From Patescibacteria group bacterium (lineage in GTDB: Bacteria; Patescibacteriota; Patescibacteriia; Patescibacteriales; WJLG01): 64,000 nt of DNA. Under the pieces are notes generated by a model, which saw nothing but the letters and a program-made list of their open reading frames with translations, was not told the origin of the DNA and made no database searches. A program made the translations under genes and the position numbers. Location of the stretch: assembly GCA_041652555.1 (NCBI GenBank), contig JBAZHE010000004.1, forward strand, positions 657 to 64,656. Reading direction: 5' to 3'. The first letter of the stretch is position 1. Every line of letters begins with the position of its first letter. Of this stretch, positions 23,961 through 62,218 are shown piece after piece.

Positions 23961-23963
23961 CGG

Positions 23964-25632: not shown

Positions 25633-25765
25633 ATTACAAAAAATCAGCGAAAAAAAGAAAATCACAAAAAACAGAAAAAACTGAGAGATGTGGATAAATT
25701 TTTGCTCACGAAAATATTTTCTCAACACCAAGACCATTATCACTTTTAAAAAAAGATGTTATCCG

Positions 25766-25799: not shown

Positions 25800-25891
25800 A
25801 ATCAAATGTAAGCTAAATTTCTAACAACCCAAAATGCTATGATAATAATTAAAGAAACACTTTTAAAAAATAATTTTAATTTAATACAACG

Positions 25892-30451: not shown

Positions 30452-30462
30452 ATTTTATAAAT

Positions 30463-44460: not shown

Positions 44461-44853
44461 TTAATTTTTCTCTAAAAAATGATAAAGCGTGCGGATTAAA
44501 AAATAATGTTTTTTTATAATTTTTTGATAGAGTTCTTCCGCAAATTTATCATTATAAGTATGAATTATTTCATTGCGATCGTCAGCCATCTCTAAAAATT
44601 TTTCCGCCTCAACGTCGGAAATCAGTTTATTCTTTTTTAGCTCCCTAAAACATTCTTTAGGAGAAAAAACATTGATACCAAAATTATTTAACAAAAACAG
44701 CTTAGCTGTTTTCCAAGCCAATTCAAAACAATATTCAAATCTTTTTATAGAGGCATCCCTGATAAATTTATTTTTTCTTTTCTTAACCGCCTCTTCTAAT
44801 GTTAAAAGAGCTTTATTAAAATCCTTTAACTTTAATTTTAACGTTTTATCCAT
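44461..44853 (-). CDS. HEPN-domain protein (HI0074-type nucleotidyltransferase substrate-binding family); putative toxin of a HEPN/MNT pair
   Basis: IRDASIKRFEYCFELAWKTAKLFL and the R-x4-H motif (DDRNEIIHTYN). Confidence 0.75.
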   Translation of the reverse strand: MDKTLKLKLKDFNKALLTLEEAVKKRKNKFIRDASIKRFEYCFELAWKTAKLFLLNNFGINVFSPKECFRELKKNKLISDVEAEKFLEMADDRNEIIHTYNDKFAEELYQKIIKKHYFLIRTLYHFLEKN

Positions 44854-45128
44854 AGCACTTTATTGCTAAAAACATTTTCTTTAAATTCTTTGGAAACTTT
44901 ATTAAAATTAACAATATCTATAAAATACGGGATAGTAGAATCGGCGAAGTTTTCTTTTAATTCGGCAACGGCGCGATAATTAACTTTCCCCAAAATTCCC
45001 AAATCAACATCACCGAAATTTTTTTGCGATAAAGAAGAGCCAAAAATAAAAATTTTAACGCCAGTGTTTTTTTTGGCGAACCGCACAGCTTCGGATTTAA
45101 TTCGTTCTAAATATCTCTTTTTTAACAT
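44838..45128 (-). CDS. Minimal nucleotidyltransferase (MNT); putative antitoxin
   Basis: IFIFGSSLSQKNFGDVDLGILG (GS...DxD). ATG at 45128 lies 6 nt after a TATAAT, suggesting a leaderless transcript. The track start at 45188 is an upstream extension. 16-nt overlap with the HEPN gene. Confidence 0.75.
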   Translation of the reverse strand: MLKKRYLERIKSEAVRFAKKNTGVKIFIFGSSLSQKNFGDVDLGILGKVNYRAVAELKENFADSTIPYFIDIVNFNKVSKEFKENVFSNKVLWIKR

Positions 45129-45168
45129 ATTAAAATTATACCTCTTTTCCGAAAAATGGGCAAATAAA
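45111..45168 (-). promoter_or_regulatory. Promoter module (right copy) of the MNT-HEPN operon
   Basis: Minus strand TTGCCC-17-TATAAT (45163-45158 / 45140-45135). Identical 31 nt to 42671-42701, including the first 6 MNT codons. Confidence 0.55.
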
Positions 45169-45186
45169 ACGCGCTGTACCAATAGC

Positions 45187-45227
45187 AAAAAATAAAAAGC
45201 TACCGTTTGAAATTATCTGGCGGTAGC
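45187..45227 (-). terminator. Rho-independent terminator after the lysS remnant
   Basis: Minus strand GCTACCG-(15-nt loop)-CGGTAGC followed by TTTTTATTTTTT. Confidence 0.6.
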
Positions 45228-45244: not shown

Positions 45245-45895
45245 TCACCTCATTAGAGGAAAAAATACGACATCTGTAAGGTTTCTCTGATTGGTCAGGA
45301 TTGCTGTAAATCGATCAATCCCTAAACCAACTCCTGAACATGGGGGCATTCCGTATTCAAGCGATTTAACGAAAGCATCATCAAAAAACATTGCTTCGCT
45401 ATCGCCACTCTTACGCAAAGAAGCCTGTTCGTTCAAAAGGTTAGCCTGTAAAACAGGATCGGCCAACTCAGAATACGCCTTGACCATTTCCCAACCATTA
45501 ACCAAAACTTGAAAAGAATCGACGACTAACGGATTTTGATCATTCCTTCTTGCTAGGGGTATAAGAATTGATGGGTGATGAACAAGAAAAGTCGGCTGAG
45601 TAAGCTTTGGTCGAGAAACCTTCTTATACAGCTTATCGATCAACCCGCCCAAAGAAATATCCTTAGCAACTTCACCAAGATTAATTCCACTCCTGCCTAT
45701 TTCTGCAAGCAAATCATCCTTTTCTAAATAAGCAAGAACATCAATCCCGCAATCATTAAGAACCAAATCCCGATAATCAACGACTCGCCACTCGCCGGAA
45801 AAATCCAGCACACTGCTCTGATAATCAAATTTGCATAGTAAAACATTAACAAAAAAATGGATTTTAAGCAATATTTTACCAATAGTTGGATTCAA
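45245..45895 (-). pseudogene. lysS: 5'-truncated class II lysyl-tRNA synthetase (C-terminal ~210 aa only)
   Basis: FLVHHPSILIPLARRN, VLVNGWEMVKAYSELADP (motif 2 region), EYGMPPCSGVGLGIDRFTAILT (motif 3). No anticodon-binding domain or motif 1. Only about 120 nt of non-coding sequence lies upstream. Confidence 0.7.
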
Positions 45896-46701: not shown

Positions 46702-48354
46702 TTATTGCAAATTTATTAACACCTGTATTTCAGAATGACCAGGAGTGGCATCTTCCAGTGCCTTGCCGATAATGGTGCCGATTTTAAGATCAACAGCACG
46801 CATTGCCTCACCAGTTGTCGCCGAAGTCGTGAGTAAATCGCCTTTTTTAATCCGCCCAGAAGAATCATTAACTTTTACTGGCACAACACCGACTAAGGCA
46901 ATTACCACTTTTTTATCTGAATCAACTTTACCCATTACGACAGAGGCTTGATCAGAAACTACGCCAACTACGCCGGAATCATATTTTTCAAAGCAAGCAG
47001 TAACATTTTTAAACCCACCATCGTTCATTACTAAAACTGTACCAGCTGGATAATTTTCATCAGCAATAAATTCTTCAGCCGCGTCACCACCGCCTAAATT
47101 AATTTGTCCATCGACCGACAAATCTCCAGAAAATTTTCCATTTCCGACTACATCCAATTTTTCAGTCGGATTTGTCGTCCCGATACCGACGTTACCAATG
47201 TTAAAATAACTATCGCCCATTGAATTTATAAGAGTATTAACTGTTGAACCATTATTAGCATAACCTGATATACTGCCACTTGACGGCGTTGCATTTATTA
47301 TCCATCTATTATATCTCGTTGGGATTGCATTTGCCCAATTAACATAAACCGAACTATTTAGAGTTCCCGACGTACTCCCTTTTGGTCCTAAATAAACCGA
47401 ACTATGACCGTAACTATCGGTCCCAATATGCATTCCGTGACCACTAAATCCTATCCATTTATCAACATCAGCTCCAGCGAGATGGAACAAGGTTTTATCT
47501 TCTGTATTATTACTAATTACTAAAGTATCAGAGAATATACCATTACCAGCAACGTTTAGTTTATAACTACCAGGATTCGTCGTCCCAATGCCGACGTTGG
47601 TACCGTCGTTATAAAGAAGGTTATTGGAGACCCAATTAGTACCATTAGATCGCAAAGTATAACCGCTTACGCCAGAGGCGGAAGGAATGGAACTGCCAAC
47701 AAGAGAATCAACATAAGCCTTGGAAGCGGCTTCGTCGCCACTAGTTGGAGGGGAAGATAATCCCTTAATGCGCCCGTCACCCAAAGCTATGCGCGCTCCG
47801 TACACCGCGCCATCAACGGACAAAGGATAGAGTGGTGAGGTGGAAGCAATTCCAACATTACCAGTATTAGAAATTCTCATTCTTTCATTTAAATATGGTG
47901 CCACTGAATTGTCTGCCGTGTAAAATGCTAAACCTGCCAGAGCGCCATTACTATATTCGGCAATTGAGGCTATTTTCCCGGCCATATCATTAGTCGCAAG
48001 AATAGACGTATCCGCTGATCTGAATTGCAATGAAGAAAATTCTTGACCAACCGCTGTAATATTTGTATTTCCCCCCGAAACAGTTAAAACCCCGGAATTA
48101 CCTGAAGTTCCTTTAACTTCTAAATTAGTTAATGGTGCTACTACTCCAATGCCAACACTACCGGAAATATTAAGCCCGCCGACCTTAGTCTGTGTGGCAG
48201 AGCCGACATTAATCGGAGTATCAAGATTATTTGCTGGCGGAACAGTGCCGTTGGCCGGATTCTGCCAAGCGGCCAAGACGGGAAAAGCAAAAACGATTGC
48301 CAAAATAATAAAAGCAATGGCGTAAAATAAATTTTTGTTTTTATTTAAAAACAT
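46702..48354 (-). CDS. Tail-fibre-like surface protein (GNVGIGTTNP repeats)
   Basis: Signal peptide. GSVGIGVVAPLTNLEV, GNVGIASTSPLYPLSV, TNVGIGTTNPGSYKLNV, GNVGIGTTNPTEKLDV. Conserved C-terminal ...GTIIGKALEDATPGHSEIQVLINLQ. Confidence 0.65.
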   Translation of the reverse strand: MFLNKNKNLFYAIAFIILAIVFAFPVLAAWQNPANGTVPPANNLDTPINVGSATQTKVGGLNISGSVGIGVVAPLTNLEVKGTSGNSGVLTVSGGNTNITAVGQEFSSLQFRSADTSILATNDMAGKIASIAEYSNGALAGLAFYTADNSVAPYLNERMRISNTGNVGIASTSPLYPLSVDGAVYGARIALGDGRIKGLSSPPTSGDEAASKAYVDSLVGSSIPSASGVSGYTLRSNGTNWVSNNLLYNDGTNVGIGTTNPGSYKLNVAGNGIFSDTLVISNNTEDKTLFHLAGADVDKWIGFSGHGMHIGTDSYGHSSVYLGPKGSTSGTLNSSVYVNWANAIPTRYNRWIINATPSSGSISGYANNGSTVNTLINSMGDSYFNIGNVGIGTTNPTEKLDVVGNGKFSGDLSVDGQINLGGGDAAEEFIADENYPAGTVLVMNDGGFKNVTACFEKYDSGVVGVVSDQASVVMGKVDSDKKVVIALVGVVPVKVNDSSGRIKKGDLLTTSATTGEAMRAVDLKIGTIIGKALEDATPGHSEIQVLINLQ

Positions 48355-48414: not shown

Positions 48415-48813
48415 TTATTTTTCACAAAAAAATTCTTCTCCCAATTCAATCATTTTTAATCGGTCTTTTTCAGTTTCATCATTATAGCCGGCCAGATGCA
48501 AAAGGCCGTGTACGAAAATAAATAATAATTCTTTTTTGAAAGAAGTTTTTAATTCGGCGGCCTGGCGCTTGATTTGGGCGGGGCTGATTACTATTTCACC
48601 GAAAAAATCCCCTTCGCCGGTAAAAGATAAAATATCGGTGGCTTTATTTTTTTTACGATAAATAAAATTTAATTTTTTAATCGCACCGTCGGAAATAAAA
48701 GCCACTGAAATATTTTTATTTTTTATTTTGCGCATCCGAAAAAATTTTTCCGCGACAGCAATTAGTTCTTTCTTGTTTATCTTGAATTTAGTAGTATTAT
48801 TTATTTCAATCAT
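48415..48813 (-). CDS. ybeY: rRNA maturation endoribonuclease YbeY
   Basis: FVHGLLHLAGYNDETEKDRLKM (H-x3-H-x5 motif region). 132 aa. Confidence 0.8.
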   Translation of the reverse strand: MIEINNTTKFKINKKELIAVAEKFFRMRKIKNKNISVAFISDGAIKKLNFIYRKKNKATDILSFTGEGDFFGEIVISPAQIKRQAAELKTSFKKELLFIFVHGLLHLAGYNDETEKDRLKMIELGEEFFCEK

Positions 48814-49889
48814 TTTAAAATAAAATTATTCACAAGGACTTGAAAAATATTTTTATAAGGCTCCTTAGCTGAATCGGATGGCACATAAGAGAGTGAGTAA
48901 ATATCATTTTTACCATCATCGGTTAAATAAAAAATATTTTTGTTGGTTGAATAGATTCCCTGCCAACCGTTTTTAAAGACAACCTTATCGGCCGAAGCCG
49001 GCTCGTCGGAAAATTGGCTGTTATACCAAGATAAAATATCTTTTTTTAGAGAATTAAGATCGCCCGTTATTTGAAAGAATGAATTATCTGGCGCCGAAAA
49101 AATCACTGATTCGCCTTGACCGGTTTCTTTTATACTCCAAGCAGTTGGAATTAGAGCGGAATAACCAATACTCCCGCTTTTATACACGCTCAAAGCGAAA
49201 TTAGCCGATAAATCTCCCGCACCGGCCGGATTATAGCCATTAATTAATTCAGAAAGGTCGCCATAAGTATCACCGTCGGAGTCCGCTTTTAAAGGATTAG
49301 TCCCTAAAATCGTTTCTTCAGCATCAGTTAAACCATCGGAGTCGGCATCAACGCCGGAAACAGTTTGTTTTTCAGCCAAAGTTGAAGACGCAACAGCCGG
49401 GGTGGACGAAGAATTTTCGGCCATAGCAGTAGAAGTGGCTGAAGAAACCCAATCTTCTTTTTCTTCCGAGACCGCCGGAGCTGATAATTCCTCTTCTGGC
49501 TTTGGTAATATTTCTTCTTCCAGCTCAGTATTCAACTCTTCTTTTTCTACTTGCGCCTCAGTAATACTTTGTTCACTTTCCGACAAAGAAATTTTTTTAG
49601 GATTTATAAAAAAGATGTAGCCAAGATAAATCGCCGCAATCATAACTAAGATTCCAACAATGATAATTGCCGCTCCAACTGCCCTACTTGATTTAGTGGA
49701 ATCGCCATTACTCAATTTGAATTTCCGTGGCATTACGCGGATTAAAAGATTTTTTTCAATCTCTTTCTCAATATTTTTGTAATCAGGATCTTTTTCTTCC
49801 AAATCCAAATCTTCGCTTAATTCATTAATTTTGCCGGTTAGCCGGCTGTTTTTCTCTGCCATAAAAATAATATTATTTAATGAGTTCAC
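48810..49889 (-). CDS. Anchored protein with thrombospondin-type-3-like Ca-binding repeats
   Basis: TM AIIIVGILVMIAAIYLGYIFF. DADSDGLTDAEETILGTNPLKADSDGDTYGDLSELINGYNP. Confidence 0.55.
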   Translation of the reverse strand: MNSLNNIIFMAEKNSRLTGKINELSEDLDLEEKDPDYKNIEKEIEKNLLIRVMPRKFKLSNGDSTKSSRAVGAAIIIVGILVMIAAIYLGYIFFINPKKISLSESEQSITEAQVEKEELNTELEEEILPKPEEELSAPAVSEEKEDWVSSATSTAMAENSSSTPAVASSTLAEKQTVSGVDADSDGLTDAEETILGTNPLKADSDGDTYGDLSELINGYNPAGAGDLSANFALSVYKSGSIGYSALIPTAWSIKETGQGESVIFSAPDNSFFQITGDLNSLKKDILSWYNSQFSDEPASADKVVFKNGWQGIYSTNKNIFYLTDDGKNDIYSLSYVPSDSAKEPYKNIFQVLVNNFILK

Positions 49890-50691
49890 CCGGCCCCTTA
49901 GGATTATATCCAGCCGTTACTTCATTGCCATCAAGGTAAGTATCGGCATCAGTGTCCGGATTATTGGGATCAGTCAAATAAACTTTAACTTCATCATAGT
50001 CGGATAAATTATCATCGTCAGTGTCGGGTTTTAAGGGGCTCGTATTAAAAATATTAACTTCATCACCGTCAGACAGGCCGTCACCGTCAGTATCAACTTT
50101 AGCTGGATCAGTTCCAGCCAAACTCTCATCAAGATCAGAAAGACCATCTTTATCAATATCAATTGGTACCGCCACAATATCTGTTGAATCTGTTGAAGTG
50201 GCGAAAGTCGTTGATGCAATGTTTTCCGCAATCGGAGCTTCATATATACCATCCGAAACAGTTTGAGTTTCATTTTGCGAAGCAGTCAGCTCTTCAATAT
50301 TATTTTCTTTGGACGTAACATCTTTAATCTCAATGCTAGACTGTTCTCCAATATTCTCTTGATTTTCATTATTAATTATAATCTCTTGTCCAGAAGAAGG
50401 AAAAAATTCATCTTTCAATTGGCTTAAGCCGGTAAACCCTAAAAAATTAGAAGCTAAAACCAAACCGGCCGCGATAACAATCAAAAGAATCAAAATAGCG
50501 ACTAAAATATTTACTAAATTGCTTGGTTTATTTTTCCTGGACGAAGAAGAATTTCCAGCCCCTTGGTCATTTGCAACGTCGAGAACTGATTCTTTAAGGC
50601 CGTTAAAAATATCTTCGGTCGGCGCCGGAGGATTAGTAAAACTTTGCGGAGTAGAGCCGGTGTCCGGCTTTTTGTCTAAATTTTCAAACAT
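49873..50691 (-). CDS. Anchored protein with thrombospondin-type-3-like Ca-binding repeats
   Basis: TM ILVAILILLIVIAAGLVLA. DIDKDGLSDLDESLAGTDPAKVDTDGDGLSDGDEVNIFNTSPLKPDTDDDNLSDYDEV. Confidence 0.55.
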   Translation of the reverse strand: MFENLDKKPDTGSTPQSFTNPPAPTEDIFNGLKESVLDVANDQGAGNSSSSRKNKPSNLVNILVAILILLIVIAAGLVLASNFLGFTGLSQLKDEFFPSSGQEIIINNENQENIGEQSSIEIKDVTSKENNIEELTASQNETQTVSDGIYEAPIAENIASTTFATSTDSTDIVAVPIDIDKDGLSDLDESLAGTDPAKVDTDGDGLSDGDEVNIFNTSPLKPDTDDDNLSDYDEVKVYLTDPNNPDTDADTYLDGNEVTAGYNPKGPGELIK

Positions 50692-50709: not shown

Positions 50710-53700
50710 TTAATTTTGATCAAAGAAGTAAGATTCTTTCAAGATACCATTACCAGAGCCGCGCGTTGTACCGGCAGACACGGCCGGTAAATCATCGCCA
50801 GTATTACCAGTCTCACCACTATCACGACAATAATATAATTTATAACCGGTATTATGACAAGTTCCAGTGGCTGGCAAACAATTCATTCCCTCTGGATTAT
50901 CGCGCCAAGGATACCAAGTAAAATCAGCGGCGATATCAGATGGCCAAGGATTGGTACAGGCAAAAACTTGCAAATCGGCCAGTGCCGTTAAACCATTTCC
51001 AATATTAGAATCATCTCTATTTGTAATATTAACAGTGGCGGTTAAGCCTGTTTGAGCGTCAATAATATCACTCCGCGCTCGCACCAATTGCGTTTCGGCA
51101 TTAACAGCAAATGGTGTTGGGTTAATAGTCTCAGCGACATCACCATTGGCAACTGCCCAATTCCAATTCCAAGCATAACCAGTGACCGGATAAAGCTTCT
51201 GGCCGTCGGACGAATAAGCGCTGGCGACAAAAACTTTATCAGCATCTTTAGTTTTATCAAAGGAATCAGCGCCGGAATCAGTATCGTTTTCATTTAAATC
51301 ATTTTCAACTTTATTAAAAAGATACGATGGCGGCTTAATGTCAACTTTTTCAATATCGCACAATCCTTTGTTTCCATTATCTCTAGTGGTAAACGACCAA
51401 ATAAAAGCCGGATGATATACAATATTATTAACAGTATTGGTAAAAGTAATACTGCCGAAAGTGGCTGTATTATCAACAGGACTATTGTCCGCATACATAC
51501 CGACGCCATAAGAACTTCGCACACCATTAGAATTATCTAGTTTATCATCACCTTTAATAATAACAAAATATTTAACATTAACATCTAAAATTCCCACCGG
51601 CTTAAAAATTAAACGCGTGGAATCCACTCCAACCTGCTCTGCGCTGGTCGCGCCGGAAATAGCACAATATTTCATTGCCGGATTCGGTCCGGGGCTAGCC
51701 TTGGCATCACGACCAAAAATATTATGTAAAAAACTTATAGCTTTAGTAAAAATGGTTAAATTTTTATTTTCTCCAAACGATAATAAAACGGAATTAGGCG
51801 GACAGGCGCCACTATATTCTCCAACCACTAAAACATTACCCTTAAAACTGGCAGTTGACATTATTTGATTGAAATCAACATAAATCGCGGCATTCGTACA
51901 AGCATCATCAGAGCCATCAGCCGGAGATGGCGACGTTGTTATAACGCTGGGGCGAGCGCGACAGCAAGAATCAACACCGCAACCGACACCAAGTGGACTA
52001 TTGCCACCGGCCACACATTCAGAATTAGATGAACAACCGCAACATAAACCACGGTCTGCGCCTCCGCAAGGAGAAACATTCGGCTGGCATTTTAAATTAT
52101 TATTTAAAACTGAGCACTGATCATTATTCGGGTCGCAACAACAATAACCGCAACCACCTTCAAGACCAGCCTGGCAAGCAAAAGGATTTTGGCAAATGCT
52201 TTGATCACAAGCATTGGTCGCTTTATTTTCACAAGAAAGCCCTAAATTCACTGTGCCACCGGCACATTTAACATCACAATCAGCCGCGGATTTAAAAGTT
52301 TTTGCCGCACCCGGGAAAGCCGTCGGATTGGAAGCGGAACAGCCACCATTAACATCACAAACATGATAACCGCAATAAGCTAAACCAGCTTGCGTAACTA
52401 AGTCAAATAAATTTCCGGCGCCTCGGGCAAACTGACGGCCGGCGCAAGAATTACTTTTAGTTCCATCCACACAGCAAGTACTGCTGTGATTAGTACAAGA
52501 AGCTGGGTCCAAAGAAGCGCAATCGCCACAAGCGCCTTCCGGCTGTCCATCGCCGTTTGGATCGGCGTTAACATCGCAATATTTAGAATAAGAAGAACCT
52601 TCACAATTGCAAGCCGCATCAGAGCTTGCTTGGTCGACAACTCCGCCAATTTCTATACGGCAACCAGAACAAACACCGTAAGTATTGGTATTATTATTTC
52701 TATCAACGCCACAAGTCCCTTCACAAATTAAACCAGTACAGCAATCATTATTATTGTTAGCTTTGCGACAGCAACATTCACAACTAGCGCCGTCAGCCGA
52801 ACAATCGCCCGGAGAATTAAAACAAGTGCCAAAAGGACAACTATTAGTAAATTTGCTTCGCTCGGAACAACTTTGATTTATCGGATCATTACTGCCCAAA
52901 TCAAACTTAGTGGAAAAATCCCACTCAAAAACACTGGACGGAATATTAATAGCACAATCACTAGCCGCATCAACACAACGTCCGGCGGCATAAGTTCCAG
53001 TTGGACAACAAACTTGCGCGCCACAAACCACATTTGGGTCTGACGCTTTCAAACAACTACCAATTTCTAAATTCAAACCATTACCGATTTCTTCCGGAGA
53101 ATTTTTTACTATTCTAGCCGGACCGGTAATCACCCCTTCCGGAACCATCGCCTTAACACGGAAAGCCTTAGCTAAACCTCTACCCTCTTCATCCCAAAAA
53201 GATATTTTTCCCGAGCCGAAAACATCACGATTATTATAGAATCTAACCTTACTTAAAGAAGTATCAAAATCACCGAAATACTCACCCCAAAATTCAACTA
53301 CCTGCCCAACCTGCGCCAACACCGGCTTAATTTTACAAAGCGATGGGAAGAGGGACAAAGTAGAATTAGCGCCAAAAAAATTCGGGCTTAAATTTTCCGT
53401 ATTAACTTCTCTATTATTAACAACTACAGTTAAAATATAATTTCCATTCACCAAGCTTTCTGGAACTTTTACTAAAATTTGCTTATCACTCCAAACACTA
53501 TCGGCGCAAATATCGGGGAAAAAATAATTAGCCTCGGAACCAGTTTGAGCGTTGCCGAAATAAACCGTGCTTGCTCCTTGAGTGGAACCGAAGCCGGAAC
53601 CGTAAATCGTAACATATTGCTTTGGAGCACCAACAACCGGCTCAAAAGAAATAATTCTCGGACCATTAGTCGCTTCCACTGTTTTAGAAAATTTTAAATA

Positions 53701-55098
53701 ATTACTCGGAACACCAGAAACAGTCGAAACAAAAGTTGTTGTATATCCGGTTTTAATGTTTGGCACCAAAGCCGAACCGTTAATCGAACCAAAACTGGAA
53801 TTTCTTCCGGCTATAGCCGCGTTAAGACGACCAAATTCAGAAATAGAATTATTCAAATTCAAACCATAATAAGAAATTTCCTCATCAAATGCACCACTCT
53901 CCGGTTCTATTTTACATAAACCGGGGCGTTGAATGTCATTAATAATAAAATCTGGCAAAATTTCACCAACAGCATCGTTAGTATCTTCATTTTTTGCATC
54001 AGCTGTAATTATTCTAATCGGACCGTTTTGGACGCCGGCCGGAACAACAACTATTATCTGATCGTCAGACCAATTAGAATCACAGCGCGGGTTATTCGGA
54101 AAAGAAGCTTCCACAGAAAAATCCGTTCCATTCCAAAAACGAACATGACCGACAGCTGTGCCAAAATAACGGCCACTAATAACTATAATATTTCCTGACG
54201 CGCCATTGGGCGCTTCAGTATTGCAAGTGGAGGCAGGGCAATCCGCGTCAGTAACACAAAAATTATTGACATTATTGGCGCAAAAACCACCAACCGGACT
54301 AACATCTTCTATAACCGGAAAGGCTAAGCAAGTACAGGTGGAGCTGGCACCAAAAGAATCGCAAGTCAAACCGCGGGAGCAAGCATTTTGATTAACCTGA
54401 CAGCCAGCGGCCTCCAAATCCAAATCGCAGGGTTCGCCGACACCGCCACCTTCTTCACAGGTGCAAGAAGATTCTTCACAATATAAGTTGGCACCGCACA
54501 TTATGCCACTAGCTTGGCAACTAGCCAAAGCCTCGTCGCCATCACAAGATTCACCAGCGCCAGCTAATCGCCGACAAGTACAATTATTGGAGCGGCAATA
54601 ATAACCATTGGAACACAAACTATCGGAAGCATCGCATTCCAGCGTAAGCGTATTTTCATCGCAAGCGGAACCCTCGCCTCCACCTGACGGAATCACACCG
54701 CCGCCACCCCCCCCACCACCTCCACCCGGAGCACCGGTAATATTTGCCATGCGATTTATTACAAAAGTAGCAACAATAAAGGCTGAAAAAATAATCACTA
54801 AGCCGATAACGGCGCTAATAATTATTTTTTTGGCCGTTTCCACTCTTTTTTCATCACCGGCCGAAGTCATCCAGACAAAACCGCCATAAACAATCAGCCC
54901 AACCGCCAAAAGACCCAAAAATCCCAAGATAATTTGGATAATGCGGACAACAATCACTCTTGGCTCGGTTGCGCCGAGATTCAAGTTATTTCCAGCGTCC
55001 AAACCGAAATTTGATTGCGCCCAAACCAAACCTCCAGCCACAAAGAAGGCTGCCAGAATTGAAAAAAATATTACAAATTTTAATTTTTTAGGAAACAT
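50710..55098 (-). CDS. Giant (1462-aa) surface protein: signal peptide, T4SS-pilin (TrbC/VirB2)-like TM hairpin, poly-Gly linker, Cys-rich and IPT/TIG-like ectodomain
   Basis: IIQIILGFLGLLAVGLIVYGGFVWMTSAGDEKRVETAKKIIISAVIGLVIIFSAFIVATFVI (two-TM pilin-like hairpin). GAPGGGGGGGGGGVIPSGGGEGS. Many CxxxC / CCxC clusters. IPT-like segments (GNIIVISGRYFG, QYVTIYGSGFG). Confidence 0.65.
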   Translation of the reverse strand: MFPKKLKFVIFFSILAAFFVAGGLVWAQSNFGLDAGNNLNLGATEPRVIVVRIIQIILGFLGLLAVGLIVYGGFVWMTSAGDEKRVETAKKIIISAVIGLVIIFSAFIVATFVINRMANITGAPGGGGGGGGGGVIPSGGGEGSACDENTLTLECDASDSLCSNGYYCRSNNCTCRRLAGAGESCDGDEALASCQASGIMCGANLYCEESSCTCEEGGGVGEPCDLDLEAAGCQVNQNACSRGLTCDSFGASSTCTCLAFPVIEDVSPVGGFCANNVNNFCVTDADCPASTCNTEAPNGASGNIIVISGRYFGTAVGHVRFWNGTDFSVEASFPNNPRCDSNWSDDQIIVVVPAGVQNGPIRIITADAKNEDTNDAVGEILPDFIINDIQRPGLCKIEPESGAFDEEISYYGLNLNNSISEFGRLNAAIAGRNSSFGSINGSALVPNIKTGYTTTFVSTVSGVPSNYLKFSKTVEATNGPRIISFEPVVGAPKQYVTIYGSGFGSTQGASTVYFGNAQTGSEANYFFPDICADSVWSDKQILVKVPESLVNGNYILTVVVNNREVNTENLSPNFFGANSTLSLFPSLCKIKPVLAQVGQVVEFWGEYFGDFDTSLSKVRFYNNRDVFGSGKISFWDEEGRGLAKAFRVKAMVPEGVITGPARIVKNSPEEIGNGLNLEIGSCLKASDPNVVCGAQVCCPTGTYAAGRCVDAASDCAINIPSSVFEWDFSTKFDLGSNDPINQSCSERSKFTNSCPFGTCFNSPGDCSADGASCECCCRKANNNNDCCTGLICEGTCGVDRNNNTNTYGVCSGCRIEIGGVVDQASSDAACNCEGSSYSKYCDVNADPNGDGQPEGACGDCASLDPASCTNHSSTCCVDGTKSNSCAGRQFARGAGNLFDLVTQAGLAYCGYHVCDVNGGCSASNPTAFPGAAKTFKSAADCDVKCAGGTVNLGLSCENKATNACDQSICQNPFACQAGLEGGCGYCCCDPNNDQCSVLNNNLKCQPNVSPCGGADRGLCCGCSSNSECVAGGNSPLGVGCGVDSCCRARPSVITTSPSPADGSDDACTNAAIYVDFNQIMSTASFKGNVLVVGEYSGACPPNSVLLSFGENKNLTIFTKAISFLHNIFGRDAKASPGPNPAMKYCAISGATSAEQVGVDSTRLIFKPVGILDVNVKYFVIIKGDDKLDNSNGVRSSYGVGMYADNSPVDNTATFGSITFTNTVNNIVYHPAFIWSFTTRDNGNKGLCDIEKVDIKPPSYLFNKVENDLNENDTDSGADSFDKTKDADKVFVASAYSSDGQKLYPVTGYAWNWNWAVANGDVAETINPTPFAVNAETQLVRARSDIIDAQTGLTATVNITNRDDSNIGNGLTALADLQVFACTNPWPSDIAADFTWYPWRDNPEGMNCLPATGTCHNTGYKLYYCRDSGETGNTGDDLPAVSAGTTRGSGNGILKESYFFDQN
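54707..54714. repeat. C8 (coding-strand G8) homopolymer inside the poly-Gly linker of the giant protein
   Basis: ccgccaCCCCCCCCaccacc read directly. Confidence 0.9.
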
Positions 55099-55110: not shown

Positions 55111-56433
55111 TTAAAATCTTAGCTGATTATTCAGGTCCATTACCGCTTCAAATTCTTCACGAGTAAGATAATTTAGATTCTTGATTTTACGGTCGGCGAT
55201 AACAGCATCTATATCTTTGCCTTCAGTAATTGATTCCTGTCCGATGGAAAGATAGGTTCTGTTTACCGGACTGCGGCGCCAGGCTTGGATGCCGGCCAGT
55301 TGCTTATTAATCCCCTCCCTAGCTAAAAGATCAACGACACTTTTTATTTTCTTGCCAATATTTTGCGGGCTATTTCCTAAGCGACGAAAATTTATCAAAT
55401 CCATATAAGCTAATTCGTCAATCGGGCTCATCACTTGCGGCGGACCAATATCATCCATTTTTTTCTTATTCCCCGGTGTCGCTAAAGCGCGTATTGCTTC
55501 TTTATTTTCCGGCACCTTATCCGTTAAAATTTCTTTTGCTTTTTCTTGTTCAGCAGCGGAAAATTCGTTCAAATCAATTCTCTCTTTCGCGACGGAAGCA
55601 ATAGGGATAATTGTTTCTTCGGGAGCGCTGGGAATTTTTTCAGTTGTCACAACCTCTTTCTTTTTTAACTCCGCGGCTAAATCATATTCAGCCCCATCTC
55701 CGCTAAAGCTACGATGGGTAAATTTATCTTGCGGAAGCTGTGGTGAAATAACCTCACTTTTCTGAAATTTTACGCCAAACTCTTTTTTATTCTGCGCGGC
55801 CGCCAAAACTCGATCAGCTTCCGCCTCTTCCAAAGATAAACCGCCAGACAAAACGCTTTTCAACAATCCTTCTCGCGCTTCAGCCTTAGTTCTTATTCCT
55901 TTTAGATAAGTTAAAATAATCTTACGCAAACGACCGGCCAATTCAGAGCTGGCAAAGGTTATGCCGGAAGAATGTGAAATTTCTTCAGCCACGGCATCCA
56001 AATCTAAAACTTTCGACGGCAAAGAAGCGGCTTGTTCGGTAAAGGAAGACTTTCCTTCATTCGATTCTATTTTTTCTCCTTCACTCATCAACCTGTCTTC
56101 CAGCTTATCCTCTGTCGCTTTAGTGAAAGGGGAAGCTTCAATAAGAGGTGATTCTGCTAACGCTAAATATTCCTGAGCATCTTTAAAAACGCGAGCGCGC
56201 AATTCCGCTTCCAGTGTCGCCGCTCGGACTCGGTCGAGCTTGAATTCTTTTTCCAAAATCACTGCTAATTCAACAAAAGGGAAATCCTTAATCATCGCAC
56301 GGACGACCAAATTAGCCAATGGCAAACTATACCGGCTTTCCAGATCTTCTATCGCCTCCAAAACTTCAGCACTAGAAACTTTTTTCTTAATGTTGTCTGA
56401 CAGGCTATTATATTTTTGTAAAAATTCCAACAT
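55111..56433 (-). CDS. Hypothetical cytoplasmic protein (440 aa)
   Basis: ORF track; tightly packed in the operon (3-nt gap to the upstream gene). Confidence 0.5.
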   Translation of the reverse strand: MLEFLQKYNSLSDNIKKKVSSAEVLEAIEDLESRYSLPLANLVVRAMIKDFPFVELAVILEKEFKLDRVRAATLEAELRARVFKDAQEYLALAESPLIEASPFTKATEDKLEDRLMSEGEKIESNEGKSSFTEQAASLPSKVLDLDAVAEEISHSSGITFASSELAGRLRKIILTYLKGIRTKAEAREGLLKSVLSGGLSLEEAEADRVLAAAQNKKEFGVKFQKSEVISPQLPQDKFTHRSFSGDGAEYDLAAELKKKEVVTTEKIPSAPEETIIPIASVAKERIDLNEFSAAEQEKAKEILTDKVPENKEAIRALATPGNKKKMDDIGPPQVMSPIDELAYMDLINFRRLGNSPQNIGKKIKSVVDLLAREGINKQLAGIQAWRRSPVNRTYLSIGQESITEGKDIDAVIADRKIKNLNYLTREEFEAVMDLNNQLRF

Positions 56434-56435
56434 TT

Positions 56436-57569
56436 TTATTCTAATTTTTTTATTTCTTCTTCAATCATTTTGCGTTCCAGACCACGAGAGTCGTAACGGT
56501 CGGCCTCGGTTTTTAATTCAGCAATTTTCTTAGCACGCTCCACAGCCGGCTGATTAATTATTTCTTTTTCTTTTTCCAAACGAGCTTTGGCTTCAGATAA
56601 GTCTCCAGTTTCTTCTTCTTTTTCAAAAGGAATTATCTGCCAATCAACACCATCCTCGTTTGGCATACTATCCGGAAAAAATTTAAGATTCCGATAAAGA
56701 ATTAATAATTTTTTCACTAATTCGCGATCCTCATCATTTAATTTTTTAGCATTGACTGATTTTAATAAAAAATCTCCTAAAACTATATTATCAAAAATTC
56801 CACTACCTTTTTGCTCTATAAAATCTTTTAGCCAATTACCAATTGTACCAAACGCTGATTTCTTTTCTAATACAAATGGTGCGGTTGTAATTTTTTCCTC
56901 ATTAGAAAGCAAAGCACGAAAAAGCTGATCACGATAAGCAAAACCTTTATCACCGGCAAGTATTTCTAATAAGACATTATTAACAGTATTAATAATATAA
57001 GGAGATTCGGTTGATAAAAAACCTGCAATATTAGAATTAAATATTTCATCACAATCCCTCTTTTCTTTTTTAGGGTCAACATCTTGAATAATATCATTTT
57101 CTGCAACTTCAATCTTCTGTTTTGCCTCCGCTAATAATTCAACTTCATATTTTTTATTAGCCGTTTCCTCCGCCAACCATTCTTCTTTTTCTTTTTTAAC
57201 TGACGCTATTTCTTCGTTAGTATTTTTTTCATAATCAGCCGAATTACCACCTAATGAACGCATATAATCATCTATTCCTCCGATCCAATCCTTAACAACC
57301 ATAAGACGTAAACCAACAATATCAAGAGCTAAGGTTTTAGCTTTTACATCATCAAAAGAAAATAATTCTTTTATTTTGGGAATTAACTCAGTTAAAAGAA
57401 CATTCTTGCGAAACAAATCAGAAATTAAACTGGCCATTTTAGTACTGTCATTTCCTGTTAAACCGTTTTTTTCACTAATAAAAACATTGTTTTCAACGGC
57501 TTTAGCTGAATTTCTATAATCCTCAACAATTTCAGGAATATCTTTTTTGTTTTTTTTATCAATAGTCAT
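56436..57569 (-). CDS. Hypothetical acidic protein (377 aa)
   Basis: ORF track; operon context. Confidence 0.5.
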   Translation of the reverse strand: MTIDKKNKKDIPEIVEDYRNSAKAVENNVFISEKNGLTGNDSTKMASLISDLFRKNVLLTELIPKIKELFSFDDVKAKTLALDIVGLRLMVVKDWIGGIDDYMRSLGGNSADYEKNTNEEIASVKKEKEEWLAEETANKKYEVELLAEAKQKIEVAENDIIQDVDPKKEKRDCDEIFNSNIAGFLSTESPYIINTVNNVLLEILAGDKGFAYRDQLFRALLSNEEKITTAPFVLEKKSAFGTIGNWLKDFIEQKGSGIFDNIVLGDFLLKSVNAKKLNDEDRELVKKLLILYRNLKFFPDSMPNEDGVDWQIIPFEKEEETGDLSEAKARLEKEKEIINQPAVERAKKIAELKTEADRYDSRGLERKMIEEEIKKLE

Positions 57570-57574
57570 AAAAA

Positions 57575-60049
57575 TTATGCAACTGCTGTTGATATATCAT
57601 CATCATTATCTATTCTAGTAGAATCACGATGACCCGCAGCTTTCATCATATCTCTTAACTTAACTACTAGTGCCATATTCTCTCCTTGTTTATTTAAAGC
57701 CTTAAGTTTATTATAACTCATTGATTCAACCACTGCTCTCTCAGCCGCAGCACCATGATTATTTAAGAATTTACCCAAGCTTTCCATATTTAAACCATTA
57801 ATATCCACAGCCTTGGAACGCTGAAAAAATGCTTTTAGATTTTCTTCATTGAAACCATTAGTAGCATCAGCATCTTCAAAGGAGTTTTCTATATTACCAG
57901 TAAGCTCAACATGTAAAATAGAAGATTTTGCCGCCGCATCTTCGTACTCCTTAGCTTTAGTTGCATCTCCAGCTCTCAAAGACTCTTCTGCCTTTCCGAC
58001 AAAAGTATCGCGCATTGCTGGTAAAAGTTTAGAAATATTATCTCGACCATCACGACCGGATTTCTTAAATGCCGATTCAATAGCTTTTTTAAATTCTCCT
58101 GATTCCATATTATCTTTAGCAGCCAAAAACATTGCAGTATTGTCAGCCTTATAAAGAGGTGTTGGCAAGTTAGTAAGATCAATTTTCCCTTTCTCCAGTC
58201 TCTTTTTAAATCTATCAACGTCTCCTTCATTTGACATATCATAATTATAAGCAGTCTGTTTTTTATCGATAGAGTCTTCTACTTTTTCAAATATTGGTTT
58301 TAGACCAGAAGTAATTTTCTTAGCCAAATCAGCGTCTTTCTTGTTACGCAAATTACCGCCTTCAGACAACACATTAGCAGCAGCTATTCTATCTATATCG
58401 TTAGCCCCACTATTTTCCATTATTGCCAACTGCTGACCAGCATCCAAATTTTTAAATTCTTTTGATTTAGATTCAACTTTTTCTTCTTTAACTTTATCAG
58501 AAACTGCTCTAACCTTATTAACCGAAGAACTAACAGATTGATGAATTGCAGCTTCGAAAGAGTCCATTTTTTTAACACTCTTCTTGCCATTTTTCAAAAC
58601 TTCAGCATTATTTTTCTCATTAACAAAAACTTTTTGTGAATCATCCCACATCCACTTCTTATCATTCAAACTTAATTTAGCATTCTTATCACCTCCCTGA
58701 ACCTTCATAAACTGCTCATGTCTAGCACGATTCAAATCACGATCTCCCAATACTTTATTTTTTAACTTCTCTATAGCTCTACCAGGTTGTTTTATTCCAG
58801 CCATTGCTAAAGAAGAAATTCCAGACATAGCCGTAGCTTTTAATTTATTGTCCGGCTTCATGGTAGCGGCAATACCTGCGCCTGCCAAACGATCTAATGT
58901 TCCAAGGCCAATCTTCCCGGTTGCCACTCCCGCACCAACAACCGCCGCGCCACCAGCCACGGCCGCGCCAGTAACTTTTTTCTTCGTCCACCCCGCACCA
59001 GCGTTAATTTTCGCTAAGCCGGCACCGGCGATTTTGCCGACACCGCCGGCCATTGATTGTGAAATCATTAGGCCGCCAATTAACATACCGATAGATACGG
59101 CAAACTTAGCTAAAGGTTCAAATTTAGAAATCGCAGTTAATCCTTCCGGCCCAACCAAGTCAGTCGGCAAACCTTCTAATTGGCTGGAACTGCCGACCGA
59201 AACAAAGGCTAGCCACAAGAAAAAAGCTAAGACCGGACCGATAATAACATTCTCAGTAAAATCACTCCACCATTTTTTTGCATAACTTGCGCCTTGCGGA
59301 AAAGTGGAAAGGAAATAAGCCAAAGGAGAAAGCACGACATAAATCCAAAGCATCACGATTCTCATCGTCAGAACTCCGATAAAAACTACCAGCACTACAG
59401 CGGAAATAAGCACCATTATTAAAGCTAGCGCATAAGAAGAAAAGACTGTAAAAGCATTGGCTCCTGTCCCCGTTGTAGAATCATTAAACATTTCTAGCTT
59501 TGGGATAGCAAACATTTCAGAAAAACTGCCGGCGGCCACATCTTTAATTTGCGACAAAAAGGCCAGCATTACTATCTGCGCAACATCAATAATTAATCCG
59601 CAAATAGTTTTGGAAAAATTTATCAAAACCGCCATTATCAAAAGCTTGGGTAAAGTTTCCTTTATACTGTATCCGCCAACGCGCAAAATAGTAGAAAAAG
59701 CGATCACTAAGAGAATGATGATAAAAAATAAATTACAAATATCGCGAACAATCACCCAACCACTTACCACTGCTGCCGCCGTAGTGAACCCGCTATATCT
59801 GGCCAAACCGATAACCATAGCTATTAATAAACCAAGAAGCCATAAAATAAAATTATAAAAAGCGGATACAATACTACTTAATATATTAGAAACCCAACCA
59901 TCTCCAGCCGCTAGCGCAATATTACCGGCAGAAAAAGAGACAACCACCAAGGCCAAAACCAAAACAACCATTGGCCAATTTTTCTTTTGACTGAAAATTT
60001 TATCTTTAATTTTTTTTAAAAAATTTTTCATTTTTAAATTAAGCTCCAA
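57575..60049 (-). CDS. 824-aa polytopic membrane protein (N-terminal ~400 aa multi-TM; possibly TrbL/VirB6-like) with a large soluble C-terminal half
   Basis: At least 8 hydrophobic helices (e.g. LLGLLIAMVIGLARY, LFFIIILLVIAFSTIL, ICGLIIDVAQIVMLAFL). The VirB6 assignment rests on context with the pilin-like protein only. Confidence 0.45.
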   Translation of the reverse strand: MELNLKMKNFLKKIKDKIFSQKKNWPMVVLVLALVVVSFSAGNIALAAGDGWVSNILSSIVSAFYNFILWLLGLLIAMVIGLARYSGFTTAAAVVSGWVIVRDICNLFFIIILLVIAFSTILRVGGYSIKETLPKLLIMAVLINFSKTICGLIIDVAQIVMLAFLSQIKDVAAGSFSEMFAIPKLEMFNDSTTGTGANAFTVFSSYALALIMVLISAVVLVVFIGVLTMRIVMLWIYVVLSPLAYFLSTFPQGASYAKKWWSDFTENVIIGPVLAFFLWLAFVSVGSSSQLEGLPTDLVGPEGLTAISKFEPLAKFAVSIGMLIGGLMISQSMAGGVGKIAGAGLAKINAGAGWTKKKVTGAAVAGGAAVVGAGVATGKIGLGTLDRLAGAGIAATMKPDNKLKATAMSGISSLAMAGIKQPGRAIEKLKNKVLGDRDLNRARHEQFMKVQGGDKNAKLSLNDKKWMWDDSQKVFVNEKNNAEVLKNGKKSVKKMDSFEAAIHQSVSSSVNKVRAVSDKVKEEKVESKSKEFKNLDAGQQLAIMENSGANDIDRIAAANVLSEGGNLRNKKDADLAKKITSGLKPIFEKVEDSIDKKQTAYNYDMSNEGDVDRFKKRLEKGKIDLTNLPTPLYKADNTAMFLAAKDNMESGEFKKAIESAFKKSGRDGRDNISKLLPAMRDTFVGKAEESLRAGDATKAKEYEDAAAKSSILHVELTGNIENSFEDADATNGFNEENLKAFFQRSKAVDINGLNMESLGKFLNNHGAAAERAVVESMSYNKLKALNKQGENMALVVKLRDMMKAAGHRDSTRIDNDDDISTAVA

Positions 60050-60653
60050 AGGTTGATTTTACCCAAGAAGTTATCGCCTCCCAGCCAGCTTCCATGACTG
60101 TTTGCCCGGCATTGCTCATCATTACTAAGAAAAAAATTATTGCCAATAAAACAAAGAGTATTATCACATCTATTAAACCTATTAGTACTTTTTCCCCCAA
60201 ACCAATCATTTTCGCTTTGTCTTTTAGGATCTCCGCTCCAGGAGCTTTTCCGCTCTTAGCCAAACCCCATTCTTCACCCAAATCACAAAAAAATTTCTTG
60301 CCAAAAATAGCATTTCCCAACCAATGAGCATTTATATAATAAAAACCAAGAATAAAACCGACTACGGTAGCAGCCGAAAACCAAGATTTTTTTAAAAGCG
60401 ACGCGGTGGCAATAGCGGCCGGATTGATTGAACTGGGAATTTCACCGACAATTTTTTCTGCCGCGGATTCTTTATTCTTTAAAGCTTGAGCGCGCACCTG
60501 ATTAAAAGTACTGATGTTTTCTTCGCCGGCCTTCTCTTCTATTATTGGCTGACGCGCACTTACTTGTTTGCGCCACAAATTTCGAGCGACAGAAATTTGT
60601 TCCGGCCCAGATAATGTTTTTAAAGATAACAATTTTTCATCAACGCTCGGCAT
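60039..60653 (-). CDS. Membrane protein (two C-terminal TM segments), first gene of the long operon
   Basis: ATG at 60653 (MPSVDEKLL) is preferred over the track start at 60692. TMs ATVVGFILGFYYINAHW and LIDVIILFVLLAIIFFLVMM. Confidence 0.5.
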   Translation of the reverse strand: MPSVDEKLLSLKTLSGPEQISVARNLWRKQVSARQPIIEEKAGEENISTFNQVRAQALKNKESAAEKIVGEIPSSINPAAIATASLLKKSWFSAATVVGFILGFYYINAHWLGNAIFGKKFFCDLGEEWGLAKSGKAPGAEILKDKAKMIGLGEKVLIGLIDVIILFVLLAIIFFLVMMSNAGQTVMEAGWEAITSWVKSTFGA

Positions 60654-60838
60654 TTTTTCTTTAAAATATCGGCAAATTTTCCCCTTGCACACAAGGAAAA
60701 AATCAACCTATTTCTTCATTGTTAATTATAACATAAAACAGGAGAGAAGGACAAGAAAAATTTTCCCAAAAATAAAAAGCCCGCGAGTTGAAAGTTATCA
60801 ACAACGCGGGCTCATATCTTGAAAGTGCACAATCAGTT

Positions 60839-62002: not shown

Positions 62003-62218
62003 TATAGACTCCTTTTTTTAAAATAAGCGGTACAAAAACCAATTCCTTAAAATTTTTAAAGTACAGCCCCCCAAAAGGGGCAAGAAATACTATCTAAGAT
62101 AATAGCATACAATTACTAGAAAATCAAGACTCTGTCAAATATTTATAGATAAATAAACTAATATTAGCGAAAAATGTGAATAATTATTTATCCCCCACAC
62201 TCCAGACTAAATAATATT

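Follow-up and report, generated by a model that had tools for sequence, protein, structure and literature searches.

What is a protein that starts as a conjugation pilin and then runs on for more than a thousand residues? The question is raised by one gene in a 64,000-nucleotide stretch of contig JBAZHE010000004.1 from a Patescibacteria group bacterium (GenBank assembly GCA_041652555.1; hereafter the window). Its product, referred to here as the megaprotein, joins a two-helix hairpin of the pilin kind seen in type IV secretion systems (T4SSs) to a giant, cysteine-rich ectodomain. The reading that we favor, with moderate confidence, is that the megaprotein is a modular VirB2-type pilin, in which a conjugation-pilin hairpin carries an adhesin-like ectodomain of ~1,340 residues. 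Much of the diversity of uncultivated bacteria belongs to Patescibacteria, which live on the cells of their hosts, and we know of no one who has established the role of the T4SS and VirB2-like pilins in the one genetically tractable member of the group. A pilin module joined covalently to a disulfide-rich, immunoglobulin (Ig)-like arm of 1,300–2,400 residues represents a testable candidate for reaching and holding the host.

Architecture of the megaprotein and recurrence in a large family

The megaprotein is encoded by an uninterrupted open reading frame (ORF) on the minus strand that begins with ATG, contains no stop codon or frameshift according to the ORF list and its translation, and specifies 1,462 residues, in exact agreement with an earlier note made from the letters of this DNA. 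An identical protein (P0034) is deposited in both NCBI and JGI as an "IPT/TIG domain-containing protein" of a Patescibacteria group bacterium. The gene and the segments of its product are laid out as follows.

50710..55098, including the stop codon, minus strand: whole megaprotein gene (ORF list, translation)
55018..55098, minus strand: predicted Sec-type signal peptide, residues 1–27, MFPKKLKFVIFFSILAAFFVAGGLVWA, with Q as the next residue (hydrophobic segment 2–29; alignment to stand-alone pilin signal peptides)
54736..55017, minus strand: mature N-terminal tail and VirB2-like two-helix hairpin, residues 28–121 (PF18895, AlphaFold2, family conservation)
54670..54735, minus strand: flexible glycine-rich linker including Gly10, residues 122–143 (Gly run 125–134; pLDDT <50 at 121–138; 29% identity)
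54322..54669, minus strand: three tandem modules of ~38 residues with six cysteines each, residues 144–259 (18 cysteines; small β-hairpin units in AlphaFold2)
53059..54321, minus strand: four IPT/TIG-like β-sandwiches, residues 260–680 (Pfam TIG, E 2e-11; AlphaFold2; Foldseek)
51979..53058, minus strand: dense cysteine-rich region, residues 681–1040 (cysteine count; invariant CC, CCC, and CGC motifs in the family alignment)
51394..51978, minus strand: Ig-like (Big_5-like) domain or domains and a low-confidence helical insert, residues 1041–1235 (weak Big_5 match; PF13205 in relatives; Foldseek)
50713..51393, minus strand: family-defining, β-rich C-terminal domain, residues 1236–1462 (invariant columns of the family alignment)

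By hydropathy, hydrophobic segments occur solely at residues 2–29, 45–81, and 86–120. The first terminates in LVWA followed by QS, and the V-W-A at its end reads as an A-x-A-like site after which a Sec type I signal peptidase would cleave. The other two correspond to the hairpin, with a first transmembrane helix (TM1) at ~46–78, a charged loop (TSAGDEKRVETAKK), and a second helix (TM2) at ~83–121. The string that the earlier note had quoted for a short hairpin behind a signal peptide falls at residues 68–104, and the Gly10 linker that it reported is a run of exactly ten residues. The C-terminus (...LKESYFFDQN) lacks a TM segment and an LPXTG motif, and a Pfam scan revealed no PrgB-type adhesin domain. 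Likewise, neither a class III (prepilin peptidase) signal with a G/FTLxE N-terminus nor a Pfam match to type IV pilus pilins was found in the protein.

Cysteines are distributed very unevenly along the chain. None of the 86 is located in residues 1–140. The three small modules contain 18, which hardly vary across aligned family members; the TIG region has 8, residues 681–1045 have 51, and the C-terminal part has 9, in line with the cysteine clusters noted earlier. AlphaFold2 was run on residues 1–720 with 62 aligned sequences, and residues 700–1462 were modeled separately. In the first model (mean pLDDT 85.8), the hairpin helices span residues 46–78 and 83–121 (pLDDT 80–91) and are followed by disorder at 121–138, the small cysteine modules at 144–260, and four β-sandwiches at 261–680, mostly at pLDDT > 90. 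The "at least three" IPT/TIG modules of the earlier note are thus accommodated by two Pfam TIG stretches (E 2e-11) and the four modeled sandwiches. The second model (mean pLDDT 77.7, pTM 0.65) comprises the cysteine-rich region, Ig-like β domains, and the β-rich C-terminal domain. Big_5 matches residues 1049–1099 weakly (15.9 bits, under the cut-off), and relatives carry PF13205. Conserved motifs of the C-terminal domain include SYLF, NDLNENDxD...FDxxxDxDK, CxNPWP, WxPWxD, YYCRDxG...DDLP, and LKESYFF, and all invariant alignment columns of this domain are present in the megaprotein of the window.

Structure comparisons placed the ectodomain in a broad class. Foldseek searches of the PDB with both halves returned only strings of Ig-like domains, among them PirB, contactin, plexin IPT3–6, the E domain of CGTase, Bacteroides SGBPs, SbsC, EA1, AgI/II adhesins, and integrins, with plexin IPT domains, Ig receptors, and the CGTase E domain matched by the IPT/TIG-like sandwiches, and the S-layer protein SbsC and the AgI/II adhesins among the matches of the C-terminal half. 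A viral library searched with the same half yielded SbsA-Ig-like and tail-protein Ig domains. For the C-terminal domain there was no specific fold match in either the PDB or the viral library; phmmer found no match in the PDB for the C-terminal half, and the cysteine-rich region had no sequence match in Pfam or the PDB. An enzymatic or specific binding role was considered for the ectodomain and set aside, given that phmmer and Foldseek provided nothing beyond generic Ig-like strings. The models thus portray the ectodomain as a long rod, rich in disulfides and resembling adhesins or S-layer proteins in type, in which an enzyme fold cannot be recognized.

A full-length search retrieved 181 significant homologues, the best 120 of which were examined. 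These 120 proteins, 1,134–2,536 residues in length, derive from NCBI, JGI, ENA, and Logan assemblies, and nearly all combine PF18895 with TIG, Big_5, or fn3 domains. The entire length of the megaprotein is covered by homologues. With a profile of short pilins, the hairpin was found to start at residues 1–31 in 117 of the best 120, and the three exceptions are N-terminally truncated. The nearest relatives are 65% and 63% identical over the full length; together with the megaprotein they form a group of short variants (1,458–1,462 residues) in a family with a median of ~1,940 residues, and the consensus of the relatives runs on beyond the megaprotein's C-terminus.

A species scan, which used one genome per species and two peptide patterns from the C-terminal domain, identified at least 177 species-representative genomes that encode the family. 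The fusion is kept in more than 100 protein clusters, and the family seems to be roughly single-copy per genome. Named genomes among the 177 belong mainly to Candidatus Falkowbacteria, Parcubacteria, and "Patescibacteria group," and include one complete Falkowbacteria chromosome of 977 kb. Many third-party annotation records of metagenome-assembled genomes in this set are titled "uncultured Gammaproteobacteria," which, judging by gene content, we take to be placeholder labels. Falkowbacteria are placed in GTDB class ABY1 (Table S1, PMC12102498). From the family, 80 species-representative loci totaling 1.44 Mb were sampled. In 74 of them the hairpin begins the ORF, with a median length of 1,944 residues, and the other six ORFs are cut by contig ends or fragmented.

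These data bear directly on the concern, raised in the earlier note itself, that the ORF might be an artefact in which assembly or gene calling fused a small pilin gene to a separate surface-protein gene. The contig is metagenomic, and the junction with a T4SS half-cluster upstream of the gene is unique to it, which would be in keeping with such an error. Against it, the same continuous architecture recurs on many independent contigs, in 117 of 120 homologues and 74 of 80 genomes; the homologues span the full query, no stop or frameshift interrupts it, and tetranucleotide composition is continuous over the region. We regard a fusion artefact as extremely improbable, and for the ORF it is refuted.

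The rarity that the earlier note implied for a pilin-anchored megaprotein was therefore overstated, as the protein belongs to a large, conserved family. Its recurrence suggests that these bacteria, which depend on hosts, use a pilin module to present a large arm of adhesin-like character. The combination of hairpin and giant ectodomain is widespread, yet undescribed in the searchable literature: articles mentioning PF18895 or T4SS_pilin do not discuss long fusions, within a searchable literature that omits most subscription-journal papers. The domain combination itself is already visible in precomputed Pfam annotations. In a survey of the phylum, PF18895 matches are tabulated as "VirB2" with their profile coverage and without protein length (Table S3, PMC12102498), and megaproteins were probably counted there as pilins. 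Surveys that tally PF18895 as "VirB2 pilins" should be read with the caution that they take in proteins that exceed a pilin more than tenfold in size.

The hairpin and its kin among T4SS pilins

The Pfam family PF18895 (T4SS_pilin) matches residues 52–113 of the megaprotein with 35.1 bits (cut-off 26.6; E 1.4e-8) over profile positions 11–71 of 71, and the isolated N-terminus with 40.7 bits. NCBIfam NF045849, the Mbov_0395 family of pilin-like conjugal transfer proteins from Mycoplasma integrative and conjugative elements (ICEs), matches residues 53–115 with 31.4–38.8 bits, slightly below its cut-off of 40. A search with residues 1–126 retrieved 33 stand-alone proteins of 96–221 residues, all of which belong to PF18895 and, where a source is named, to Patescibacteria. 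They align from the signal peptide to ~10–20 residues beyond TM2, ending where the glycine linker starts, and share with the hairpin the motif GGFxWMTSAGNEEKVxxAKxI...AVIGLxI. Conversely, a profile of these 33 pilins (~120 residues) detects the megaprotein ORF with an E value of 4.6e-41; across the 64 kb, it finds no other convincing hairpin gene. The proposal that the N-terminus is T4SS-pilin-like, which the earlier note had made contingent on profile similarity, is hence borne out by a match above the gathering threshold and by end-to-end alignment with stand-alone pilins. The size of a pilin whose whole mature chain is the hairpin (~100–150 residues) is far exceeded, with ~1,340 of 1,462 residues following TM2.

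Kinship to the classical families is more distant. The Mycoplasma ICE pilin-like family is matched by 34 of 34 hairpin sequences, TrbC/VirB2 (PF04956) by 14 of 34 (E <= 0.01; best E 3.6e-9), and a VirB2 major-pilin model and a pLS20 conjugation protein by one each. In the Foldseek search with the 720-residue model, in which the hairpin was compared as part of that model, Ig domains dominate. On the strength of sequence profiles, the hairpin is best described as a member of PF18895 that is kin to VirB2/TrbC at the superfamily level only.

The superfamily itself proved to be vast. When 1.84 billion representative proteins were searched with the hairpin profile, 96,617 clusters were recovered at E <= 1e-3, 44,734 at E <= 1e-10, and 1,265 at E <= 1e-30. 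Most of the best 150 matches contain 2–17 tandem hairpins per protein (P0274–P0418; P0278, with 1,775 residues, has 17 hairpin stretches). Such proteins may be true poly-pilins or read-through gene calls over pilin arrays, for example through use of a wrong genetic code. Among the single-hairpin proteins in this set, about half have 125–262 residues (e.g., 125, 131, 132, 135, and 146), and six are long (613, 650, 998, 1,079, 1,134, and 1,832 residues); the set is ranked by score and rich in multi-hairpin proteins, so its lengths are a biased sample. It follows that the hairpin superfamily commonly bears long extensions, and the premise of the earlier note that pilins are normally about 100 residues long fails here, with both C-terminal extensions and tandem hairpins being frequent.

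The closest stand-alone pilin (P0005; 117 residues, 57% identical) is encoded away from T4SS genes amid housekeeping genes, immediately downstream of a gene for an 850-residue FG-GAP/Big_5 surface protein (L101, 6768–10354). This gene pair resembles the fusion architecture in an "unfused" form.

Comparison with known systems sharpens what is unusual about the megaprotein. Its closest counterparts are the VirB2-like pilins of Patescibacteria (PF18895), for instance those of the essential array in Southlakia epibionticum, which come from the same phylum and share the signal peptide, the two TM helices, and the conserved charged loop. These have ~100–150 residues and are often encoded in arrays, often near virB4 (PMC12102498, PMC10633639). 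Arrays of 2–11 are common and frequently lie near virB4, with many pilin genes also unlinked (PMC12102498), and in S. epibionticum both the pilin array and the T4SS are essential (PMC10633639). The megaprotein, in contrast, has ~1,340 extra residues and is encoded in an operon of its own with a second fused hairpin protein, normally unlinked to virB4. VirB2/TrbC (PF04956), F-pilin TraA, and Gram-positive PrgF are hairpins of like topology, in which the charged loop faces the lumen and the termini point outward; here the differences are that the megaprotein scores a mere 7.9 bits on PF04956 and that solved pilins are undetectable from it by sequence profile. We know of no classical conjugative pilin described with a large folded ectodomain. 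NF045849 is the closest curated hairpin profile from outside Patescibacteria (38.8 bits for residues 53–115 in isolation). Like the megaprotein, the Mycoplasma proteins belong to a wall-less or monoderm lineage with an MPF-FATA-type T4SS, but they have ~80 residues and no ectodomain.

Modular or bulky pilins and two-domain tip adhesins occur in other pilus systems, as in the modular type IV pilins PilB and PilC of Streptococcus sanguinis, the minor pilins CofB and TcpB, FimH and PapG of chaperone–usher pili, and VirB5 at the tips of T-pili. The design is alike, in that a polymerization or anchor module is combined with a receptor-binding module, and the likeness is one of analogy only: type IV and chaperone–usher pilins have an unrelated fold and machine, and the megaprotein has no class III signal and no donor-strand domain. 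The PrgB-type and LPXTG adhesins of MPF-FATA conjugation are also large, extracellular, rich in Ig-like domains, and in principle tied to a monoderm T4SS, whereas the megaprotein has no LPXTG motif or PrgB domain and is anchored by an N-terminal pilin hairpin. The 2025 phylum survey reported "no adhesins, such as PrgB" in Patescibacteria (PMC12102498).

Within the family, the hairpin is the most conserved region. Mean pairwise identity is 57% for the hairpin (TM1, 59%; loop, 53%; TM2, 58%), compared to 38–46% for the ectodomain regions, 29% for the linker, and 28% for the signal peptide, and the loop is conserved as strongly as in stand-alone pilins. Because this best-preserved part includes a loop that would be cytoplasmic in a resting membrane protein, the hairpin is likely to do more than anchor; in a passive anchor, only hydrophobicity would be expected to persist.

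The conservation profile also bears on whether the megaprotein might be a precursor, cut in or near the glycine linker into a short pilin and a cysteine-rich protein that is released or separately attached. RP4 provides an established case of TrbC-type prepilins being processed at the C-terminus, and trimming of TrbC/VirB2 prepilins would provide the analogy. The linker is disordered, glycine-rich, and poorly conserved, and stand-alone pilins stop exactly at its start, as such a model would have it. Yet neither the family alignment nor the pilin alignment contains a conserved cleavage motif in the linker, the operon lacks a conserved gene for a dedicated peptidase (three relatives and the 80 loci), and making a 120-residue pilin from a precursor of 1,462–2,500 residues would be costly for a genome of ~1 Mb. 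Precursor cleavage is possible but unsupported, and we judge it improbable.

Genomic setting and the choice between pilin subunit and membrane anchor

In three relatives, the genes are ordered as a divergent RelA/SpoT gene, a gene for a T4SS_pilin and Big_5 protein of 870–901 residues, the megaprotein gene, in places further giant genes, and genes for TSP3_bac membrane proteins; no virB4 is present in the three, and in the closest relative YbeY also occurs after the TSP3 genes. The further giants, located between the megaprotein and TSP3 genes, encode secreted proteins of 1,052–1,663 residues with Beta_helix and DUF4215 domains (L003, 15830–20821; L004, 15444–21927), and the operon has the look of a hotspot where genes for large surface proteins gather. 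Across the 80 loci, a second hairpin ORF is present in 65; in 57 of these it encodes 780–1,010 residues and lies on the same strand directly upstream, at a median gap of 29 bp. A profile of this ~890-residue partner matches the megaprotein hairpin with 138.8 bits. YbeY is found in 23 of 80 loci. Orthologues of the two TSP3 proteins of the window accompany the family as well, the 272-residue protein downstream in 69 of 80 loci and the 359-residue protein in 70 of 80. In the window, these two genes follow the megaprotein gene:

49873..50691, minus strand: downstream partner 1, a 272-residue single-pass membrane protein with bacterial TSP3 (Ca-binding) repeats (TSP3_bac, E 2.2e-12)
48810..49889, minus strand: downstream partner 2, a 359-residue single-pass membrane protein with a TSP3 repeat (TSP3_bac, 25.3 bits)

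The upstream side of the gene differs from that of its relatives. Instead of RelA/SpoT and the ~890-residue partner, the ectodomain of which is absent from the entire window, as is RelA, a tight run of genes on the same strand abuts the megaprotein gene:

55111..60692, minus strand: four tight upstream genes, for proteins of 217, 824 (VirB6-like, polytopic), 377, and 440 residues (synteny with virB4 clusters), namely
55111–56433, minus strand: gene for the 440-residue protein
56436–57569, minus strand: gene for the 377-residue protein
57575–60049, minus strand: gene for the 824-residue VirB6-like polytopic membrane protein
60039–60692, minus strand: gene for the 217-residue protein

From the megaprotein gene upward, the spacers measure 12, 2, 5, and –11 nt, so that the megaprotein gene is the third gene downstream of the VirB6-like gene in a tightly spaced, co-directional run. 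The 217-residue gene is preceded by a 387-residue gene and by the part of a giant gene that encodes the C-terminus of its product, and this first half of a canonical Patescibacteria T4SS cluster spans 55111–64000 on the minus strand. Pfam and NCBIfam yielded nothing useful for these neighbors, even at E <= 10, and they were identified by their synteny with virB4 clusters. All 15 of the other loci that contain orthologues of these genes have the canonical order giant, ~390–445 aa, ~190–330 aa, VirB6-like, ~370–390 aa, ~470–520 aa, PrgI (VirB3), TraC-like, VirB4, ~210 aa, (DsbA), and RadA, and the six genes of the window are full-length orthologues of the first six. The 824-residue protein has more than 750 homologues in Patescibacteria; PF19590 is present in some of them, JGI gives one the name TrbL/VirB6, and weak TrbL matches (16–19 bits) occur in two. 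PrgI, TraC-like, and VirB4, which are 75–92% identical among relatives, are absent from the window: the switch from T4SS cluster to megaprotein operon occurs within the 12-nt spacer TATTTTAAAATA, where PrgI–TraC–VirB4 usually follow, as they do in all 11 loci of relatives of the 440-residue protein. The junction was found in no independent assembly, and exact-protein look-ups of the 440-residue protein and the megaprotein returned nothing. Tetranucleotide composition is continuous over the junction (r = 0.975 compared to the rest of the contig, like other segments), and a chimera between organisms therefore lacks compositional support. The junction represents either a lineage-specific rearrangement or an intragenomic misjoin, and in both cases the ORF itself is unaffected. 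A consensus scan for promoters and terminators was compatible with a single transcription unit from the 217-residue gene through the megaprotein gene to ybeY, and is not evidence of one. No short hairpin gene was detected in the T4SS clusters of this lineage (16 loci, 177 kb), in a scan that found its positive control. In relatives, a DsbA/thioredoxin gene resides inside the T4SS cluster after VirB4 and the ~210-residue gene (L085, 19297–20151; L086, 18822–19553), and the encoded protein could serve the oxidative folding of cysteine-rich, hairpin-fused surface proteins such as the megaprotein.

For the modular pilin that we favor, the following sequence of events can be proposed. Sec export and removal of the signal peptide would leave the hairpin inserted with both termini outside (N-out/C-out), a topology predicted from the signal peptide and two TM helices and consistent with 86 cysteines of extracellular type. 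Because of this insertion, the Gly10 linker and cysteine-rich ectodomain would lie outside the monoderm cell, as a rod tens of nanometers long that contacts a host cell or substrate. The hairpin would most likely dock onto, or co-assemble with, a VirB6-type platform of the T4SS or hairpin proteins such as the ~890-residue partner. Given its bulk, the ectodomain would favor a position at the tip or base or as a sparse subunit over a homopolymer. The two TSP3-repeat proteins probably belong to the same surface complex, and the megaprotein would probably form a complex with them and with the ~890-residue hairpin partner that is missing from the window. The display of an adhesin from a pilin-type membrane anchor, as the earlier note had it, thus stands with respect to architecture and C-out topology, whereas the proposed adhesin role draws on matches of the ectodomain to folds of a generic kind (Ig-like, IPT, S-layer, and adhesin).

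Every solved conjugative pilus has its charged loops along the lumen and both pilin termini on the outside; assembly has been proposed to proceed from a membrane pool onto a VirB6 pentamer, and it was lately shown that a Gram-positive T4SS requires VirB2-like PrgF (bioRxiv 10.64898/2025.12.18.695078). With both termini outside, a C-terminal extension would project outward and is geometrically allowed. Together with the conservation of the hairpin and the adjacency to a VirB6-like gene in the window, this geometry leads us to prefer, tentatively and at rather low probability, a hairpin that is pulled out of the membrane and installed on a T4SS filament or a VirB6 platform over a specialized membrane anchor.

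Several observations weigh against the interpretation as a pilin. The match of the megaprotein itself to PF04956 is negligible when set against that profile's cut-off of 27.9, and a search of PDB sequences with the hairpin profile found no solved VirB2 or TraA, returning only spurious matches (E > 0.5). VirB4, PrgI, TraC-like, and VirB6-like genes occur within ~10 kb in none of the 80 megaprotein loci, where the neighbors are RelA/SpoT (63 of 80) and housekeeping genes. The adjacency of T4SS and megaprotein genes seen in the window is unique, and a scan of the metagenome collection for the exact 39-nt junction came back empty. Pfam, phmmer, and Foldseek located no ligand-binding domain, and the word "adhesin" reflects the architecture and the class of the folds. 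Polymerization might not tolerate a C-terminal extension of such bulk. Finally, no PF18895 protein, the short pilins included, is known to form a filament, and a T4SS pilus in Patescibacteria is described in a 2025 review as an intriguing possibility (PMC12857230).

Alternatively, the hairpin may have been co-opted purely as an N-out/C-out anchor for an envelope or S-layer-like protein that neither interacts with a T4SS nor polymerizes. In favor of this view, the operon lies apart from T4SS genes, amid housekeeping genes, in all 80 of the other loci; the Foldseek matches include the S-layer proteins SbsC and EA1; a family that is roughly single-copy and widely conserved resembles a core envelope component; and a superfamily of 96,617 clusters fused to many extensions fits a general-purpose module. 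The pattern of conservation argues otherwise, with the hairpin and its charged loop at 57% and 53% identity as opposed to 38–46% elsewhere and with a motif that is the same as in stand-alone pilins. In addition, the closely related hairpin of the partner suggests hairpin–hairpin or hairpin–machine interactions. We consider a passive anchor a serious but less probable explanation than a modular pilin.

An extension of the modular-pilin reading is more speculative, and we hold it at low confidence: in ABY1/Falkowbacteria-type lineages, modular VirB2-type pilins of giant size (the ~890-residue partner and the protein of 1,460–2,500 residues) would make up or cap the T4SS filament or channel, making the host-recognition adhesin part of the pilin. 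If true, these lineages would attach to their hosts by means of the T4SS, which is essential in cultivated Saccharibacteria, Patescibacteria would have their "missing" conjugation-type adhesin, and the megaprotein would be the first modular pilin in the T4SS/VirB2 class. More generally, the family raises the question of whether VirB2-type subunits may bear large cargo on their outward C-terminus, as type IV and chaperone–usher pili do with modular or tip pilins, or whether PF18895 is instead a module for display at the surface in general and not a subunit of pili.

Further features of the window

Four additional features were observed at a distance from the megaprotein gene. At 44461–45188 on the minus strand, a HEPN-type gene (NTase_sub_bind/HepT-like, 130 residues) overlaps a gene for a minimal nucleotidyltransferase (Polbeta, 116 residues), forming a typical HEPN–MNT toxin–antitoxin pair. 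Beside it, at 45245–45895 on the minus strand, a 216-residue ORF matches only positions 185–307 of 308 (the last ~120) of PF00152 and looks like a truncated fragment of a Lys/Asp/Asn-tRNA synthetase. Two minus-strand genes, at 40171–42624 and 46702–48354, encode secreted proteins with repeated GNVGIGT-type motifs and similar segments in common; the 817-residue one has a Peptidase_S74 (endosialidase intramolecular chaperone) domain at its end, like those of phage tail fibers. Lastly, G+C content falls to 0.29–0.31 at ~16000–26000 and 30000–32000, compared to 0.37–0.44 elsewhere in the window. This low-G+C region, which may be an island, holds a radical SAM/SPASM gene (19187–20542) and a C-5 cytosine DNA methylase gene (22929–23969).

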